Part shown: positions 31,442 through 35,699 of the stretch, piece by piece | Layout of the letters: the number at the start of each line of letters is the position of its first letter | How positions within the stretch are numbered: position 1 is the stretch's first letter | Assembly (NCBI GenBank): GCA_030445745.1 | Contig: JASUTE010000007.1 | Coordinates: 1,839-65,838 of the forward strand | Direction of reading: 5' to 3' | From: Candidatus Cloacimonadota bacterium | GTDB lineage: Bacteria > Cloacimonadota > Cloacimonadia > Cloacimonadales > TCS61 | Length of the DNA stretch: 64,000 bases | The notes under the pieces: generated by a model | What the model saw: only the letters and a program-made list of their open reading frames with translations | Told to the model about the DNA's origin: nothing | The model's database searches: none | Position numbers and translations under genes: made by a program

Positions 31442-32449
31442 TTAGTAACCTTCCGGATTATTTTTCTGCCAGCGCCAGGAGTCCTCGCACATTTTTAGTA
31501 GGTCATATTGTGCCTTCCAGCCCAAATCTTTAGCGGCTTTGGAAGCATCAGCGTAACATTCGCCGATATCACCGGGGCGTCTTGCGGTAATTTGGTAAGG
31601 AATTTTTTTGCCGCTAACCTGAGAAAAAGCAGCTATCACTTCCAATACGGAATATCCGCGCCCTGTCCCTAAATTATAGGTGACTATGCCGGGTTTTTCT
31701 TGTAATTTTTGCAAAGCTGCTAAATGTCCCCGAGCCAGATCGACCACGTGGATATAATCACGCACGCCGGTGCCATCAGCTGTTTGGTAATCGTTACCAA
31801 ACACATTCAATTTTTTACGTTTTCCCACAGCAACCTGAGAAATATATGGCATCAAATTATTGGGAATACCTTGCGGATCTTCACCCATAGTGCCAGAAGG
31901 ATGAGCTCCCACTGGGTTAAAATAGCGGAGCAGAGCTACATTCCAGCTACTATCGGCATTGTAAAGATCGCGCATAATTTGTTCGATCATTAATTTGCTG
32001 GTACCGTAGGGATTGGTAGTATGTAGTGGGAAATCCTCGGTGATGGGTACCGTTTCCGGCTCGCCATAAACTGTTGCCGAGCTGGAAAAAACTATATCTT
32101 TAATGTTATATTGTGTCATAACTTGCAGAAGAACCAGAGAGCCATTCACATTATTTTCATAGTAAGCCAAGGGTTTAGCTACCGATTCTCCTACAGCTTT
32201 CAATCCGGCAAAGTGAATAACAGCTTCTATGTGGTTTTCCTGGAATATCTTGTGCAGAGCTGCGCTATCACGAATATCTTCTTGGTAGAATTTAGGTTTA
32301 TTACCTGTTAGGTTGGAAATGCGGTTCAATACTTCTTGTTTACTGTTGGAAAGATTATCGATTATAACTACCCGGTGACCAGCTTGCATCAGTTCCACCA
32401 CAGTGTGGCTGCCGATATAGCCAGTACCACCTGTTACTAATATATTCAT
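31442..32449 (-). CDS. galE: UDP-glucose 4-epimerase
   Basis: 335 aa. [15 protein letters not shown]..., YGxxK ([10 protein letters not shown]), full-length GalE pattern. Confidence 0.95.
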
Positions 32450-32508
32450 ATAAGATTTATCCTTTCTTATGTTTAAATTTCAACTTACAGTTCTCGGCTA
32501 GTGGAATC
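32419..32508 (-). repeat. Direct repeat DR1-proximal (galE 5'UTR plus first 10 codons plus 1 nt)
   Basis: 90 nt identical to 32760-32849 by direct comparison. Confidence 0.9.
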
Positions 32509-32759
32509 TCGCTTTCAGCGGGAATTTGAAAATGAATTTATATAATTTTTAAGACGTTTTTTAGGGCATCTTTTTTTAAACAAACTTCGTAATAAACTAA
32601 TTTCAAAGGAACTCTATATTTTGTTGCTGTAACATCACGTTATTGTGTTGTTTTAACCGCTCTATTAAATCTTTAGTAAAACCGTAATAATATTTATTAT
32701 CTTTTTAGCTTATAAGCACTTAGGTATAATATTTCATTTTCAAATTATTCCACCTGGCA
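32509..32759 (-). mobile_element. Decayed GIY-YIG cassette (pseudogene) inserted upstream of galE
   Basis: Same junction TGCCAGGTGGAATAATTTGAAA-ATG as the intact copy. Reads MKYYT*VLIS*KDNKYYYGFTKDLIERLKQHNN..., then a frameshift and a ~30-nt deletion relative to 33933-34205. Confidence 0.75.
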
Positions 32760-32849
32760 AGCCAGTACCACCTGTTACTAATATATTCATATAAGATTTA
32801 TCCTTTCTTATGTTTAAATTTCAACTTACAGTTCTCGGCTAGTGGAATC
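32760..32849 (-). repeat. Direct repeat DR1-distal (copy of galE 5'UTR plus start plus 10 codons)
   Basis: 90/90 identity to 32419-32508. Continues into the cassette junction instead of into galE. Confidence 0.9.
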
Positions 32850-32909
32850 CCGATCTCCTCGGGTGAAGTAAACTAAGATTCAATCCTAAGCTACAGAACT
32901 GTTTTATTT

Positions 32910-33869
32910 CTATAACTCGGGTAAAAAGCCGTTTTCTGTTTGTAGTAGATTTAAATATTGGGAAACACCTTTTTCTAAAGAGGTGAATTCTGTTTTATAC
33001 CCGGCATTTCTCAGGTTATTCAGATCGGCTTTAGTAAAGGTTTGGTATGTATCTTCCAGATCTTGGGGGAAAGGGATAGGCGCGATGCTGCTTTCTGGAA
33101 ATTGGGATTGTACAAGTTCAGCCAGTTTTTGAAAACTGCGTGCTTCCCCACTCCCACAGTTAAAAATACCCGATTTTTCCAAATTTTCCAAGAAAAATAA
33201 ATTAACATCAACAGCATCCTCTACCCAGATAAAATCGCGCAGATAGTTGTCACTGCCTTCAAACACACTTATCTTTCCCTCTTTTGCAGCCTGATGATAG
33301 AAGTGATAAATCACCGAAGCCATGCGACCTTTATGGTTTTCTTGAGGACCATATACATTAAAATAGCGTAGCCCGACAACCTGAGATAGCTCTTTTTTGC
33401 TAAAATTATTAGTTAGACGGCGGACGTAGTTGTCGAAAGCAAATTTGGAAAAACCGTAGATGTTCAAGGGATATTCACTGGCGCGTTCTTCTTTGAAACC
33501 ATTTTTGCCATGGCCATAAGTGGCAGCACTGGAAGCATAGATGAAATTTATTTTGTTGTTAAGGGCAAACTTAAGTAATTTTTTGGAATAAGTGTAGTTG
33601 TTATCCATCATATATTTTCCATCTTGTTCAACCGTGGAAGAGCAGGCACCTTGATGAAAGATGATATCGTAATCGTTGAATTGCTCCAACTGTTGTAAAA
33701 AATCATTTTTGTTTATGTAATCTAGGAATTTTAATCTATTCAAATTTAAATGTTTGGCAGCATTACTAAGGTTATCTACAATTGTGATATGGTCAAAACC
33801 ACGTTTGTTGAGTCCATATACCAGGTTACTGCCGATGAAGCCAGCCCCTCCAGTTACTATTATTTTCAT
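32910..33869 (-). CDS. hldD: ADP-L-glycero-D-manno-heptose 6-epimerase
   Basis: MKIIVTGGAGFIGSNLVYGLNKRGFDHITIVDNLSNAAKHLNL... closely follows the RfaD/HldD N-terminus. Start preferred at the second ATG (33869); the track ORF begins at 33887. Confidence 0.88.
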   Translation of the reverse strand: MKIIVTGGAGFIGSNLVYGLNKRGFDHITIVDNLSNAAKHLNLNRLKFLDYINKNDFLQQLEQFNDYDIIFHQGACSSTVEQDGKYMMDNNYTYSKKLLKFALNNKINFIYASSAATYGHGKNGFKEERASEYPLNIYGFSKFAFDNYVRRLTNNFSKKELSQVVGLRYFNVYGPQENHKGRMASVIYHFYHQAAKEGKISVFEGSDNYLRDFIWVEDAVDVNLFFLENLEKSGIFNCGSGEARSFQKLAELVQSQFPESSIAPIPFPQDLEDTYQTFTKADLNNLRNAGYKTEFTSLEKGVSQYLNLLQTENGFLPEL

Positions 33870-33943
33870 AAGTTTAAATCCTTTCATTAAAAAAAATATA
33901 ACTTTATGTTCTCGGCCAGTGGAATCCCGCTTTCAGCGGGAAT
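33838..33943 (-). repeat. Direct repeat DR2-proximal (hairpin motif plus hldD 5'UTR plus first 10 codons)
   Basis: 106 nt matching 34227-34332 with one mismatch (33915 g vs 34304 a). Confidence 0.9.
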
Positions 33944-34205
33944 TTGAAAATGAATTTAAATAATTCTTAAGACGGTTTTTCAGAAACATTTTACCATGAT
34001 GGGTCTTAAAATACTTTTCTCTTTTTAGGGCATCTTTCTTATTAAAACAAACTTCGTAATAAACTAATTTCAATGGAGTTCTATATTTCGTTGCTGTAAT
34101 ATCACTGTTATTGTGTTGTTTTAACCGCTCTATTAAATCTTTAGTAAAACCGTAATAATATTTATTATCTTTTTCGCTTTTAAGTACATAGGTATAATAT
34201 TTCAT
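33933..34205 (-). CDS. GIY-YIG nuclease family protein (minimal URI domain, COG2827/YhbQ-like)
   Basis: 90 aa from the ATG at 34205: MKYYTYVLKSEKDNKYYYGFTKDLIERLKQHNN...LVYYEVCFNKKDALKREKYFK (GIY..YxG, R..xH, E motifs). The stop TGA lies in the loop of the hairpin that begins DR2. Confidence 0.85.
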   Translation of the reverse strand: MKYYTYVLKSEKDNKYYYGFTKDLIERLKQHNNSDITATKYRTPLKLVYYEVCFNKKDALKREKYFKTHHGKMFLKNRLKNYLNSFSNSR

Positions 34206-34226
34206 TTTCAAATTATTCCACCTGGC

Positions 34227-34332
34227 AAGCCAGCCCCTCCAGTTACTATTATTTTCATAAGTTTAAATCCTTTCATTAAAAAAAATATAACTTTATGTTC
34301 TCGACCAGTGGAATCCCGCTTTCAGCGGGAAT
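34227..34332 (-). repeat. Direct repeat DR2-distal (copy of hairpin plus hldD 5'UTR plus start plus 10 codons)
   Basis: 105/106 identity to 33838-33943. Runs into the junction TGCCAGGTGGAATAATTTGAAA. Confidence 0.9.
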
Positions 34333-34874
34333 ATTTTTCCTAAGCATGCTTTTCTTGGACTTTGCAGTAAATTAGCATTATCAGATTTCTGCAAAATTTT
34401 CTTAAAGTTTTTTTATAAGTTTTCTCCGCCCACTAAATTCTACCACAATGAAAAATTCCAGCAGTTTTCAGGTAGCCTAATATTTCTGAGCAGAGTTTTC
34501 TCTGTCTTCTGCTTGGAAACGGAAACGAGGATTTTGTGGCTTCTCTTAAGCTATATCCAGGTCAGGTAAATTTGCCAATCTCAGCTTTTTGATAGAGTCC
34601 ATTTTCAACATTTTTTCGGCAACATTCTATCGTTGCGCCTAAATGAATAACATCGAGATTTAGCTGGTCCGATTCTTTGCTTTAGCTGTTGGCGAAATAA
34701 ACGAGCAAATAACCAGATAACCCCAGCGTTTCAAAGAGGACAAAATCTATTGCAAAAATTTACTAGGGATATTACTCGGTTTAATAAATCGGGGATGATG
34801 ACGAGTTTTATTTCATAATTTTTTTGCAAAATAAAGCAATGTCAAAATTGCATATTCACAGTGAAGTGAAAGTT

Positions 34875-35699
34875 TCAAAAGAACTTCCTCATCTTTATAA
34901 TAAATTTTTCCAGTTCGTCTTTTTTGATCTCCATTCCTAGCGGAATATGAGGCTTATTAGCACCGTGAAAATCAGAACCACCAGTTATTATAAGGTCGTA
35001 CTTTGCTGCCAGATTTTTATATTCTGTAATTTGTTGAGTTTTATGTTGAGAATAATAAACTTCTATTCCTTGTAGTCCCTCGTAAGCCAGGTCGTGTACA
35101 AGACTTTCCAGTTCTTGTGCTTGCAAGCCGGTTTGACACGGATGCGCCAGAGCTGCAAAACCACCTGCAGCACGAATCAGTTGGATTGCTTCAGCCGGTT
35201 CCATTCGCTTTTTGTCTAAATAGAACGGCGCCCCTTTTTTTAGGTATTTATCAAATGCTTCTTGTTTGTTTTGTACATATCCTTTTTGTAATAGAAGTTG
35301 AGCAAAATGGGGACGTCCAACTAAATCGCTACCAGCTACTTTTACCAATTCATCCCAGCTGATTGCAAACCCGTGTTTTTGTAGGTTTCCCACCATTTTA
35401 TAATTACGTTTTTCTCTAAATTCCTGAAGTTGTGTGAGTTTTTTTTGTAAAGGTTGATAGTTGGAATCGACTCCATATCCCAGAATATGCAAGGTTTTAG
35501 GGTATTCAGCACTTATTTCCAGCCCGGGAATCAGCCGCAATTCATTGGGAATTTTCTCTATCTGGTTATAGGCGTCTAAGGTGTCGTGATCGGTTATAGA
35601 GAGTAGGGTAATTTGAGCATCAACAGCAGCCTGTAACAAACTAGAAGGGCTATAGGAACCGTCGGATGCGGTAGTATGAGTGTGTAGATCGATAAACAT
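34875..35699 (-). CDS. PHP-domain metal-dependent phosphoesterase (TrpH/YciV-like)
   Basis: Start preferred at 35699 (AAGGAAG-5 nt-ATG; MFIDLHTHTTASDGS...). ...ITDHDT..., ...GGSDFHG. Confidence 0.85.
   Translation of the reverse strand: MFIDLHTHTTASDGSYSPSSLLQAAVDAQITLLSITDHDTLDAYNQIEKIPNELRLIPGLEISAEYPKTLHILGYGVDSNYQPLQKKLTQLQEFREKRNYKMVGNLQKHGFAISWDELVKVAGSDLVGRPHFAQLLLQKGYVQNKQEAFDKYLKKGAPFYLDKKRMEPAEAIQLIRAAGGFAALAHPCQTGLQAQELESLVHDLAYEGLQGIEVYYSQHKTQQITEYKNLAAKYDLIITGGSDFHGANKPHIPLGMEIKKDELEKFIIKMRKFF

Follow-up and report, generated by a model that had tools for sequence, protein, structure and literature searches.

The window analyzed here, a 64,000-nucleotide stretch of Candidatus Cloacimonadota DNA, carries at the 5′ end of hldD a cassette of approximately 290 bp that is bounded by terminal inverted repeats and contains one gene, encoding a 90-residue, single-domain GIY-YIG nuclease (Table 1). 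GIY-YIG is the only Pfam match of this protein (E = 2.5e-16, residues 2-72), which consists of the catalytic domain alone and retains 24 of the 24 alignment columns that are invariant across its family. When PDB, NCBIfam and plasmid collections were searched with the nuclease, they returned weak UPF0213/YazA-type matches or nothing, the only PDB hits being weak UPF0213 matches (1zg2, E = 6e-5; 1ywl, E = 1e-3). The terminal inverted repeat combines a perfect 14-bp inner repeat (34214-34201 / 33954-33941) with an outer repeat matched at 11 of 12 bp; the left end reads GCCAGGTGGAAT followed by AATTTGAAAATGAA, and the right end is its reverse complement, interrupted by a 15-nt hairpin. The outer arm of the right end is homologous to the ancestral C-terminal codons YSTGRE.

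The insertion point lies after ...CTGGC within the codons for the NAD-binding GxGxxG motif, both in hldD (VTGGAG before the junction, FIGS after it) and in the neighboring galE. In each case the host gene is intact because its 5′ end (104-106 nt) is duplicated on both sides of the element. The direct repeat at hldD is 106 nt long and 99% identical, and its upstream copy has as its left edge a solo end-motif (M′) that is identical in sequence to the element's right end. Within the window there are exactly two occurrences of the 26-mer TTGCCAGGTGGAATAATTTGAAAATG (0 expected) and four of the motif GATTCCACTRGYCGAGAAC (0.01 expected), which places the structure far beyond chance; it is no assembly artefact either, since the nuclease protein was found on 36 independent contigs and the region in more than 20 public runs.

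Table 1. Positions of the features at the hldD and galE loci of the window
Feature	Coordinates	Strand	Details
Solo end-motif (M′) upstream of hldD	34297..34332	-	Hairpin TCCCGCTGAAAGCGGGA then ATTCCACTGGTCGAGAAC; stem 34314-34330
Direct-repeat copy A of host 5′ end	34227..34332	-	End-motif, UTR, RBS and first 10 codons
Host-type Shine-Dalgarno AAAGGA of leader ORF	34268..34273	-	dG -4.7, aligned spacing 5
Leader ORF, MKIIVTGGAG then LPGGII and stop	34208..34258	-	10 host codons and 6 codons from element left end; TGA 34210-34208
Left end of element (TTGCCAGGTGGAATAATTTGAAAATGAA)	34201..34228	-	Outer arm GCCAGGTGGAAT; inner perfect 14-bp arm AATTTGAAAATGAA holds leader stop and nuclease ATG
Intact GIY-YIG nuclease ORF, 90 aa, single domain	33933..34205	-	All family-invariant residues present
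Right end of element	33908..33954	-	Inner arm TTCATTTTCAAATT, 15-nt hairpin insert CCCGCTGAAAGCGGG giving nuclease stop, outer arm ATTCCACTGGC then CGAGAAC
Direct-repeat copy B	33838..33943	-	UTR, RBS, ATG and first 10 codons for the intact gene
Intact hldD/rfaD, ADP-glyceromanno-heptose 6-epimerase	32910..33869	-	TIGR02197, 396 bits
Direct-repeat copy A2, galE locus	32760..32863	-	Starts with solo end-motif, different hairpin (CCCGAGGAGATCGGG) then ATTCCACTAGCCGAGAAC
Second leader, ending LPGGII and stop	32740..32790	-	
Decayed non-autonomous element copy	32490..32760	-	Left end 32760-32733, pseudo-ORF from 32737, right end 32544-32490
Direct-repeat copy B2	32419..32522	-	Feeds intact galE
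Intact galE, UDP-glucose 4-epimerase	31442..32449	-	

The upstream copy of the hldD 5′ end runs into the left end of the element and forms a short leader ORF. Read on the minus strand from ATG 34258, it translates as MKIIVTGGAGLPGGII and a stop (codons atg aaa ata ata gta act gga ggg gct ggc from the host, then ttg cca ggt gga ata att TGA from the element), and 2 nt (aa) separate the stop from the nuclease ATG at 34205. This is what the original prediction had described, a shortened copy of the host N-terminus, 16 residues long, which retains the RBS and ATG of the host and is closed by element-derived sequence, and the reading bears it out, with AAAGGA at the spacing normal for this genome (aligned 5-6 nt) and the intact host gene read from the second UTR copy, as had been claimed. 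An alternative in-frame ATG at 34276 (MKGFKL...), six codons further upstream, has no Shine-Dalgarno (SD) sequence (dG +0.3), so 34258 is the likely leader start.

The proposal that the galE locus follows the same design also proved correct: its leader starts with the ATG at 32790 and ends with the stop at 32742-32740, followed by aa and the ATG of a pseudo-ORF at 32737. The direct repeat is here 104 nt long and 95% identical, and the pseudo-ORF has suffered a nonsense codon, a -1 frameshift and deletions of 3 nt and 46 nt. The two element copies of the window are not independent of each other.

Mobility and recurrence of the cassette

In a strain whose flanks are 99.8-99.9% identical (L003), the galE site is empty and holds exactly one copy of the repeat, and in oil-field metagenomes this empty allele predominates. 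Community contigs also contain miniatures without an ORF, made up of a left and a right end, as well as insertions in other flanks, again situated after CTGGC. A metagenome scan with the window-type left end TTGCCNGRTGGAATAATTT gave no further copies, 119 of 119 matches being unrelated coding sequences; most of these belonged to a membrane protein encoding ...AGWNNF.... One metatranscriptome contig contains a joint going back 390 positions, compatible with circular or tandem 389-nt units or with a de Bruijn cycle through the 106-nt repeat. Across four runs the repeat unitig reached 2.2-2.9x the flank depth and the nuclease 0.85-1.45x, with which extra copies and coverage noise are equally compatible.

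The window holds two solo copies of the end-motif, each upstream of an epimerase gene, and the hairpin motif precedes both of these genes even where the galE site is empty. In the predicted RNA fold, the RBS is enclosed by pairing between the motif upstream of hldD and the left end of the element (z = -3.1). Such features, like the clustering of Neisseria NTS repeats around surface-structure genes (PMC11893778), would suit a role in host regulation, with the stub as a host leader peptide or attenuator, the hairpins as cis-regulators of LPS and sugar-nucleotide genes and the GIY-YIG gene as a domesticated passenger. We nevertheless consider this highly improbable, as the arrangement is polymorphic between near-identical strains, the galE copy of the element is a pseudogene, the same cassette is present in unrelated genes and phyla, and the Rfam search returned nothing at the gathering threshold for the whole window and nothing at E<=1 for 32400-34900.

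The family, as recovered by a genome scan, comprises 80 loci, at 63 of which the inverted repeats match over 12 bases or more. The right arm encodes the C-terminus of the nuclease (KSYLTG and stop), and the variable base of one arm is complementary to that of the other at 64 of 68 loci, three types of pair being represented. The target consensus, drawn from 13 sites, is AC.GG.GG.GC.GG(G/C) followed across the junction by TTCAT.GG and falls in GxGxxG codons; at every locus seen of the sub-lineage to which the window belongs, the left end follows C(T/C)GGC. The order of stub, nuclease and regenerated gene recurs in 11 further insertions into SDR (sugar-epimerase/dehydratase) genes, mostly of Bacteroidota and related phyla (L008, L012, L014, L023, L029, L036, L045, L047, L058, L061 and L208), where the host genes encode RfbB, TviC-like proteins and other SDR paralogues. 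The duplications that flank SDR-gene insertions range from 31 to 106 nt. Element copies in dispensable genes show no 5′-end duplication; in the closest relative (P0005), a 23S_rRNA_IVP gene is split in two with none.

A stub is kept in 10 of these 11 independent insertions, with the host-frame stop 1-16 nt before the nuclease ATG, so that the expectation of a leader in other copies holds for SDR genes; it fails for L036, in which the stub is destroyed and the nuclease ORF intact, and for most family members, which lie in other contexts. The further expectation that the TGAAAATG spacing would be conserved was not borne out, the gaps being 1, 1, 6, 10, 11, 11, 11, 11, 13 and 16 nt.

As to the origin of the duplication, import of the downstream 5′ end from a previous host was rejected as a general rule: at L058 both copies contain an N-terminal extension of 12 codons that is specific to the gene, which identifies the duplicated segment as the host's own sequence. 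We conjecture that it probably goes back to a pair of breaks dependent on the nuclease, at the solo end-motif and at the CTGGC target, which were then filled in; in that case cuts would be expected at ...CTGGC and adjoining ATTCCACTGG. Alternatively, the element could have reinserted in tandem and then decayed, as at L008, where it stands in tandem with an older decayed copy of the kind proposed for the solo motif at hldD. Searches of 34333-34880, upstream of that motif, with the family HMM in six frames and with blastn at word size 7 found no decayed nuclease, so that its interpretation as the remnant of an older tandem copy is without direct support in the window.

Translation of the nuclease and the possible part of the stub

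The genome makes use of SD sequences (median dG -5.7 versus -2.3 at random positions), and in 20 of the 23 SD-bearing genes of the window the aligned spacing is 2-5 nt. The only SD-like motif available to the nuclease, AGGUG, forms a predicted duplex of -7.0 kcal/mol at an aligned spacing of 13, about 9 nt too far upstream. The nuclease had been thought to possess no obvious SD of its own; this has to be qualified in that an SD-like sequence is present, although at a spacing that appears unsuitable. The start region of the nuclease is AU-rich and unpaired in the predicted fold, and such an AU-rich, unstructured start would permit SD-independent initiation.

Promoter-like matches between the parts of the locus numbered 13, against 9.8+/-3.1 in shuffles, and thus showed no enrichment, which is in line with the original prediction. 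The one candidate in front of the nuclease is a weak -35/-10-like match inside the repeat (34276-34248, 9/12), and a dedicated sigma-70 promoter before the nuclease was rejected because this match is all there is and the counts do not rise above those of the shuffles. No terminator-like sites were found on the gene strand between 32300 and 35000. From the solo motif through the leader to the nuclease, the locus is covered by a metatranscriptome contig (33973-34354), though such RNA contigs carry no strand information, are shallow and could be DNA-derived in part.

With an upstream ORF that has a putative RBS (AAAGGA, aligned spacing 5) and with UGA-AA-AUG at the junction, the locus has the layout of termination-reinitiation, and translational coupling of the stub to the nuclease is plausible on sequence grounds. 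The host segment from the pre-existing solo end-motif to the insertion point lies on both sides of the cassette, the downstream copy preserving the epimerase and the upstream copy running into the left end and stopping 2 nt before the nuclease ATG. In the model that we propose, the element appears to have neither a promoter nor a correctly spaced SD of its own, so that the nuclease would be made from an additional cistron on the mRNA of the host: ribosomes from the host RBS would translate the stub and terminate at the UGA, some might reinitiate at the AUG 2 nt downstream, or at a UUG that overlaps the stop, and the epimerase would then be translated from its own duplicated RBS. The duplication would likewise be what allows an insertion in an essential 5′ coding region to survive. 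The stub layout probably lets the element borrow host expression signals; for the full proposal, in which the orphaned first copy of the hldD 5′ end acts as a 16-codon ORF that brings host expression to the element through coupling, we see the chances as evenly balanced.

The stub could instead be a mere insertion scar, the nuclease initiating by itself (SD-independently or from the distant AGGUG), possibly from a promoter in the duplicated UTR, and the nearby stop reflecting a stop-rich inverted repeat. We hold this to be possible but rather doubtful. Most of the 80 relatives have intact ORFs and no host N-terminal leader, from which it follows that the nuclease can evidently be expressed in other ways; the loss of the leader at L036, the variable stop-to-ATG gap, the unpaired start region, the strength of the AGGUG duplex and the weak promoter-like match within the repeat all agree with a scar. 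So does the location of TGAAAATG within the perfect 14-bp terminal inverted repeat, which makes its identity at the two window loci a matter of element sequence and hence no independent evidence for coupling. On the other side, the AGGUG lies well outside the spacing used by the SD-bearing genes of the window, and promoter matches of that quality are no commoner than in shuffles. A scar also sits poorly with the history of the left end, since the window's sub-lineage has lost the ancestral in-frame TGA of CCCTG-TGA-AAT (now GTGGAAT or ATGGAAT), and three different left-end sequences (the window, L012 and L008) have acquired a new stop 1-2 nt ahead of the ATG. Its place in the inverted repeat puts TGAAAATG under constraint as DNA, which counts against the coupling reading. 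In the stop-rich, AT-rich left end a stop is likely enough by chance, at approximately 0.5 per frame over 8 codons.

A further explanation, which we judge unlikely, treats the stop in the left end as an insulator, selected to end incoming host translation and so prevent toxic fusions and read-through rather than to supply the nuclease with ribosomes, while a low output of nuclease is maintained independently of the stub. Both non-nuclease frames are closed within 20 nt of the nuclease ATG in the window, two of the three frames are closed in the family left-end consensus CACCCTGTTAAATAATTTTAAAT, and selfish nucleases are generally expressed at low levels. Insulation leaves unexplained, however, why the stop has shifted to 1-2 nt from the ATG in the sub-lineage of the window, and it is compatible with coupling, since reinitiation is open to any ribosome set free 2 nt from an AUG.

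Across the family, a co-directional ORF of at least 100 codons lies downstream of the element at 34 of 67 loci, against a divergent one at 11 of 67 (p = 4e-5), and such downstream ORFs often start a few nucleotides from the nuclease stop or overlap it (ATGA, GTGA, TAGTG). For upstream ORFs entering the left end there was no significant enrichment (19 versus 11 of 67 loci, p = 0.15). If the coupling is real, the element would be a compact selfish gene without expression signals of its own that borrows those of its host, and this would explain why small 'GIY-YIG family protein' genes lie in their thousands just in front of housekeeping genes and in the same orientation. For annotation, duplicated N-terminal stubs are to be expected beside such nuclease genes. 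The architecture is experimentally tractable, since Draconibacterium orientale DSM 25947 and Oceanihabitans sediminis S9-10, both in culture, also have it.

Comparison with known systems

Judged by size, domain and repeat layout, the element appears closest to the Ssn/NTS systems (Chenal et al. 2025). Ssn enzymes cut single-stranded DNA beside hairpin repeats, and NTS-ssnA-NTS was likened by its authors to an insertion sequence; this one paper on Ssn proteins does not settle what they do beyond Neisseria (Chenal et al. 2025, PMC11893778). Like SsnA of Neisseria meningitidis, a single-domain GIY-YIG protein (about 90-94 aa in Ssn, 90 aa in the window), the nuclease is encoded between inverted hairpin-forming repeats; solo copies of the repeat, two in the window, also lie near other genes. 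Of the 16 stem positions of the window hairpin ATTCCCGC-TGAAA-GCGGGATT, 15 agree with the NTS/dRS3 palindrome halves ATTCCCGC/GCGGGAAT; a search of the window on either strand with the published SRM pattern HGTCWYN(0-2)YYVSBRHN(0-5)WNVSBRGN(0-2)RNCYNB gave 0 matches. In contrast to Ssn, the repeat arms of the window family are the ends of the gene itself, the right arm encoding the C-terminus, and insertion into coding regions, target specificity, duplication of the host 5′ end and expression from host signals are not described in the Ssn paper (PMC11893778).

To the Ssn picture the present analysis adds near-identical strains with and without the element, a target that is defined, ends that covary and miniatures without an ORF. 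It also adds a recurrent way of living in essential genes, in which the 5′ end is duplicated, a stub stands before the nuclease and a regenerated host gene follows. We tentatively suggest, with slightly less than even confidence, that Ssn-type cassettes are autonomous IS-like elements without a conventional transposase, which home to conserved coding motifs (GxGxxG codons) and persist in essential genes through a 5′-end duplication that would also supply host promoter, RBS and start codon by way of a coupled chimeric leader.

The free-standing GIY-YIG homing endonucleases of T-even phages (Seg proteins and MobE; reviewed in PMC2988022) are likewise selfish nuclease genes that are aimed at conserved coding sequence, show presence/absence polymorphism at the target and lie within host transcription units, and translational control has been discussed for them (PMC2988022). 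Compared with the features of I-TevI/Seg-type homing endonucleases, the element has a conserved coding target and filled and empty alleles and has no separate DNA-binding domain; Seg and MobE proteins have a C-terminal DNA-binding domain and cut double-stranded DNA, whereas the window protein is a bare 90-residue catalytic domain. Seg and MobE genes also differ in being without terminal inverted repeats and without regeneration of the interrupted gene by 5′-end duplication.

With the single-strand 'peel and paste' elements of the IS200/IS605 group and with REP/RAYT systems, the cassette shares its very small size, hairpin-containing ends, insertion beside a short specific sequence and non-autonomous miniatures. 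Unlike IS200/IS605, it has no HUH/Y1 transposase TnpA, its only ORF being GIY-YIG by Pfam, its ends are true, covarying inverted repeats, and its insertions in SDR genes are flanked by duplications (31 to 106 nt; 104-106 nt in the window), which IS200/IS605 elements are not known to make.

Prophages and islands that integrate in tRNA genes, icd and the like carry a replacement end for the target gene; they rely on an integrase of the tyrosine or serine type together with short att cores, and it is 3′ ends that are restored. The resemblance is that the interrupted gene stays functional and the displaced end is copied on the other side of the element. Here, by contrast, the duplicated segment is a 5′ end (promoter-proximal UTR, RBS and start codon) and is the host's own sequence, and the leftover copy is proposed to feed the gene of the element.

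Termination-reinitiation coupling in bacterial operons relies on stop/start overlaps such as ATGA or TGAnnATG. The locus matches this scheme in that the AUG has no well-placed SD and follows, after 2 nt, the end of an ORF with a good RBS, and departs from it in that the upstream 'gene' is a 16-codon chimera made by the insertion.

The leader, the nuclease and their host genes

The short reading frame predicted at the 5' end of hldD is present as described: ten host codons (ATG AAA ATA ATA GTA ACT GGA GGG GCT GGC) pass directly into TTG CCA GGT GGA ATA ATT TGA, giving the leader peptide MKIIVTGGAG plus LPGGII. AAAGGATTTAAACTT directly precedes its ATG, and the stop is followed, after the predicted two nucleotides (AA), by the start of the nuclease gene (ATG AAA TAT TAT). 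The same design was also correctly predicted at galE, where the copy behind the second leader is decayed, with a nonsense codon, a -1 frameshift and deletions of 3 nt and 46 nt. The region was recovered on 36 contigs and in more than 20 public runs, and its repeats are far above chance expectation. The source is probably a Cloacimonadota bacterium of oil-field or subsurface origin, since a Cloacimonadota MAG shares the 90%-identity cluster of its SSB protein.

Positions of the leaders, the nuclease copies, the host genes and nearby features
Feature	Position	Strand	Remark
Leader at hldD	34258..34208	-	TGA at 34210-34208
TTG in nuclease frame	34209-34211	-	overlaps leader stop
GIY-YIG nuclease ORF, intact (hldD)	34205..33933	-	90 aa; Pfam GIY-YIG E=2.5e-16
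ADP-glyceromanno-heptose 6-epimerase gene (hldD)	33869..32910	-	
Leader at galE	32790..32740	-	TGA at 32742-32740; next ATG 32737
Element copy at galE	32490-32760	-	decayed
GalE gene	32449..31442	-	
Hairpin, two copies	33926-33943; 34314-34332	-	ATTCCCGC-TGAAA-GCGGGATT
Interval between PHP-domain gene and solo motif	34333-34874	-	540 nt without credible ORF

Ends of the element and signs of mobility

Both a repeat search of the window and direct reading place the nuclease gene between inverted repeats. The left end of this element reads GCCAGGTGGAAT-AATTTGAAAATGAA and the right end, as its reverse complement, GCCAGTGGAAT-[ CCCGCTTTCAGCGGG ]-AATTTGAAAATGAA. The LPGGII tail of the leader is the left end translated in the host frame, and the predicted TGAAAATG falls within a perfect 14-bp terminal repeat, a position that counts against the role claimed for it. 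The right-end motif is a hairpin plus ATTCCACTGGCCGAGAAC, and a solo copy precedes both insertion points at a distance of about 105 nt, forming the left edge of direct repeats of 106 nt at hldD and 104 nt at galE. Each locus runs from solo motif, UTR, RBS, ATG and ten codons, through left end, nuclease and right end (the motif again), to a second UTR, RBS, ATG and ten codons that lead into the remaining gene. The junction follows ...CTGGC within the Rossmann GxGxxG codons (VTGGAG/FIGS in hldD, VTGGTG/YIGS in galE).

In the window, ATTCCACTGGCCGAGAAC is homologous to the C-terminal coding arm of relatives (YSTGRE* in the Cloacimonadota locus L008) and has been moved out of place by a 15-nt hairpin insert, which now provides the nuclease stop codon and is peculiar to the right end of the window's sub-lineage. 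The hairpin is nearly the Neisseria dRS3/NTS palindrome ATTCCCGC...GCGGGAAT, in a different host phylum, and at galE the stem of the solo copy varies with compensating changes (CCCGA...TCGGG). The 540-nt interval upstream of the hldD solo motif gave neither an Rfam match nor a nuclease remnant; contigs from four metatranscriptome runs cover about 34426-34805 of it.

Very probably, the element is a mobile, Ssn-like cassette (akin to single-domain GIY-YIG ssDNA nucleases with repeats) that comes with duplication of the host 5' end. In a strain with flanks 99.8-99.95% identical the hldD site is filled and the galE site (L003:1700-1830) empty, the latter being exactly one repeat copy, solo motif included. 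Relative to its flanks, the galE copy is covered at a depth of 0-30% in four metagenomes from oil fields, where the empty allele is therefore dominant. This copy is broken and ~10% diverged from the one at hldD, and the host repeats flanking it are identical at 92/93 positions outside the hairpin; the sequences suggest either that the copy was defective before it inserted, recently, or that the repeats have undergone gene conversion, and they also suggest mobilisation of the defective copy in trans. ORF-less miniatures (33933/34208 joint) occur in community contigs of runs X20 and X18 as left end, 18 nt and right end, the spacer being ATCGTGAATTTGAAGAAA or ATCGGGAATTTGAATATA (+ strand). The X18 miniature sits at a different locus whose left flank again ends ...TCTCTGGC, and in at least one further flank in community contigs the left end again directly follows ...CTGGC.

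In one metatranscriptome contig the sequence jumps from 34278 back to 33889 (it "goes back 390"), and within 33838-34332 a 77-nt repeat unitig reaches 2.2-2.9x flank depth and the nuclease up to 1.45x. Tandem or circular copies of a 389-nt unit could account for these observations, as could a cycle that runs through the repeat in the assembly.

The nuclease family and the recurrence of the leader

Scanning a single genome of each species gave 80 loci with relatives at 53-67% identity, in Bacteroidota, Ignavibacteriota, Cloacimonadota, Desulfobacterota, Nitrospirota, Patescibacteria, Gammaproteobacteria and others. Of the 80, 63 have inverted repeats in which 12 or more bases match; the left arm, (T)CACCCTGT[T/G/C]AAATAA, lies 10-20 nt upstream of the ATG, and the right arm forms the final codons of the gene (K-S-Y-L/F-T-G-stop). 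The variable base of the arms is complementary in 64/68 loci, with three pair types, and the ends therefore co-evolve.

Targets vary by sub-lineage: 5' ends of sugar-epimerase/dehydratase (SDR) genes, 23S_rRNA_IVP/four-helix-bundle genes (L205; also L016, L021, L059, L065, L070, L075), GxxExxY genes, 3' ends (stop codon) of Fibrobacter-type paralogous-domain genes, RHS genes, and sites directly before start codons, such as AGGATGA ahead of prs in L079. The relatives in 23S_rRNA_IVP/four-helix-bundle genes, with the closest of all, P0005 (69% identity), among them, lie inside these genes and cut them in two, and at L205 (500-1260) an ORF-less miniature lies 32 nt past the full element's end in the same gene. 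In L006 (2770-2880), right-end/left-end hairpin units (TATTTGACAGTGGGTTTACCCTGTCAAAT...) directly 3' of the nuclease gene form an array that resembles clustered solo repeats.

The order of leader, nuclease and regenerated gene recurs in 11 more SDR insertions (L008, L012, L014, L023, L029, L036, L045, L047, L058, L061, L208), two of them in cultured isolates, with host genes that include RfbB, TviC-like and other paralogues. All SDR insertions lie at AC.GG.GG.GC.GG(G/C)/TTCAT.GG. They carry duplications of 31-106 nt, and the regenerated host start lies -1 to 63 nt downstream of the nuclease stop (a TAGTG overlap in L047, TAG-A-ATG in L045). The duplicated segment is the host's own sequence, since a gene-specific N-terminal extension in L058 occurs in both copies. 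A dispensable target gene, at L205, is merely split, with no duplication; we infer that 5' duplication would be an occasional by-product of insertion and the sole survivable outcome in an essential gene.

In L008 (1600-2860, a Cloacimonadota MAG), a single epimerase gene is preceded by three successive nuclease copies or remnants. The final two make up a tandem repeat of 296 nt (95% identity, period 387), and the older of them is internally deleted. This arrangement looks like a record of repeated hits on the regenerated N-terminus, which is therefore open to renewed insertion. Earlier element copies may have left the solo motifs behind; a search upstream of hldD found no remnant of such a copy. 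In Melioribacter, an extra 46-codon epimerase N-terminal fragment (MEFTLRILVTGGAGFIGSNLVDHF...; L012:26-170) lies ~600 nt upstream of the leader and the downstream epimerase ORF is broken after ~42 codons; more than one rearrangement seems to have taken place here.

Possible coupling to the host gene and comparison with Ssn

The genome uses Shine-Dalgarno (SD) sites, with a median duplex energy of -5.7 kcal/mol before long ORFs vs -2.3 at random positions and an aligned spacing of 2-5 nt in 20/23 SD-bearing genes. The leader keeps the host AAAGGA at spacing 5, and the prediction that the nuclease lacks an obvious SD is essentially correct, its only candidate being AGGUG at spacing 13, within the inverted repeat. 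No terminator-like site was found on the gene strand, and promoter-like matches were no more frequent than in shuffles. RNA folding predicts pairing between the solo motif and the left end (ATTCCACTGG/CCAGGTGGAAT, z=-3.1), in a stem that encloses the leader RBS and abuts the nuclease start; translation of the leader would open this stem. Metatranscriptome contigs cover the region (one spans 33973-34354), shallow, unstranded and allowing no TSS to be placed. The TTG that overlaps the leader stop (aTTTGAaaATG, read as TTG AAA ATG) is a possible second candidate reinitiation codon in the stop/start overlap.

Across the family, the element is followed by an ORF of 100 codons or more in the same direction in 34/67 loci vs a divergent one in 11/67 (p=4e-5). 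The co-directional ORFs often begin at, or a few nucleotides from, the nuclease stop, a pattern consistent with an element maintained as an additional cistron at host-gene 5' ends; upstream ORFs running into the left end of family loci are not significantly enriched (19 vs 11, p=0.15). In many relatives (L079, L034, L063, L030, L062, L081 and L082) the longest downstream host ORF, for example prs in L079, starts with ATG or GTG at the right-end AGG(A/G)TGA, overlapping the nuclease stop. In these relatives the host gene appears to be translationally coupled to the nuclease.

The original prediction of a hijacked host start holds in part: a host RBS and start codon stand ahead of a nuclease with poor signals of its own, in a recurrent design. 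Its precise spacing is not conserved, the host-frame stop, located in the left end, preceding the nuclease ATG by 1, 1, 6, 10, 11, 11, 11, 11, 13 or 16 nt, and TGAAAATG doubles as repeat sequence; in L036 the nuclease is intact and the leader destroyed. Whether nuclease translation is substantially coupled to the leader is, on these signals, close to an even call, leaning slightly against.

A classical homing endonuclease was rejected, as the nuclease has no DNA-binding domain, and so was an IS200/IS605 element, as the HUH transposase is absent and inverted repeats and long duplications are present. We found no paper that deals with such cassettes inserted at coding 5' ends, with their target motifs, with the 5'-end duplication or with the leader arrangement. 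Among described systems Ssn comes closest, a family of ~94-aa single-domain GIY-YIG enzymes that cleave ssDNA alone, immediately 5' of the hairpin repeat NTS/SRM, which flanks their own gene and is also dispersed as solo copies; its authors liken NTS-ssnA-NTS to an IS (PMC11893778). Between the window hairpin and the halves of the NTS/dRS3 palindrome, 15/16 positions agree; the published SRM pattern has no match in the window. We regard the window nuclease as a likely candidate member of the Ssn family.
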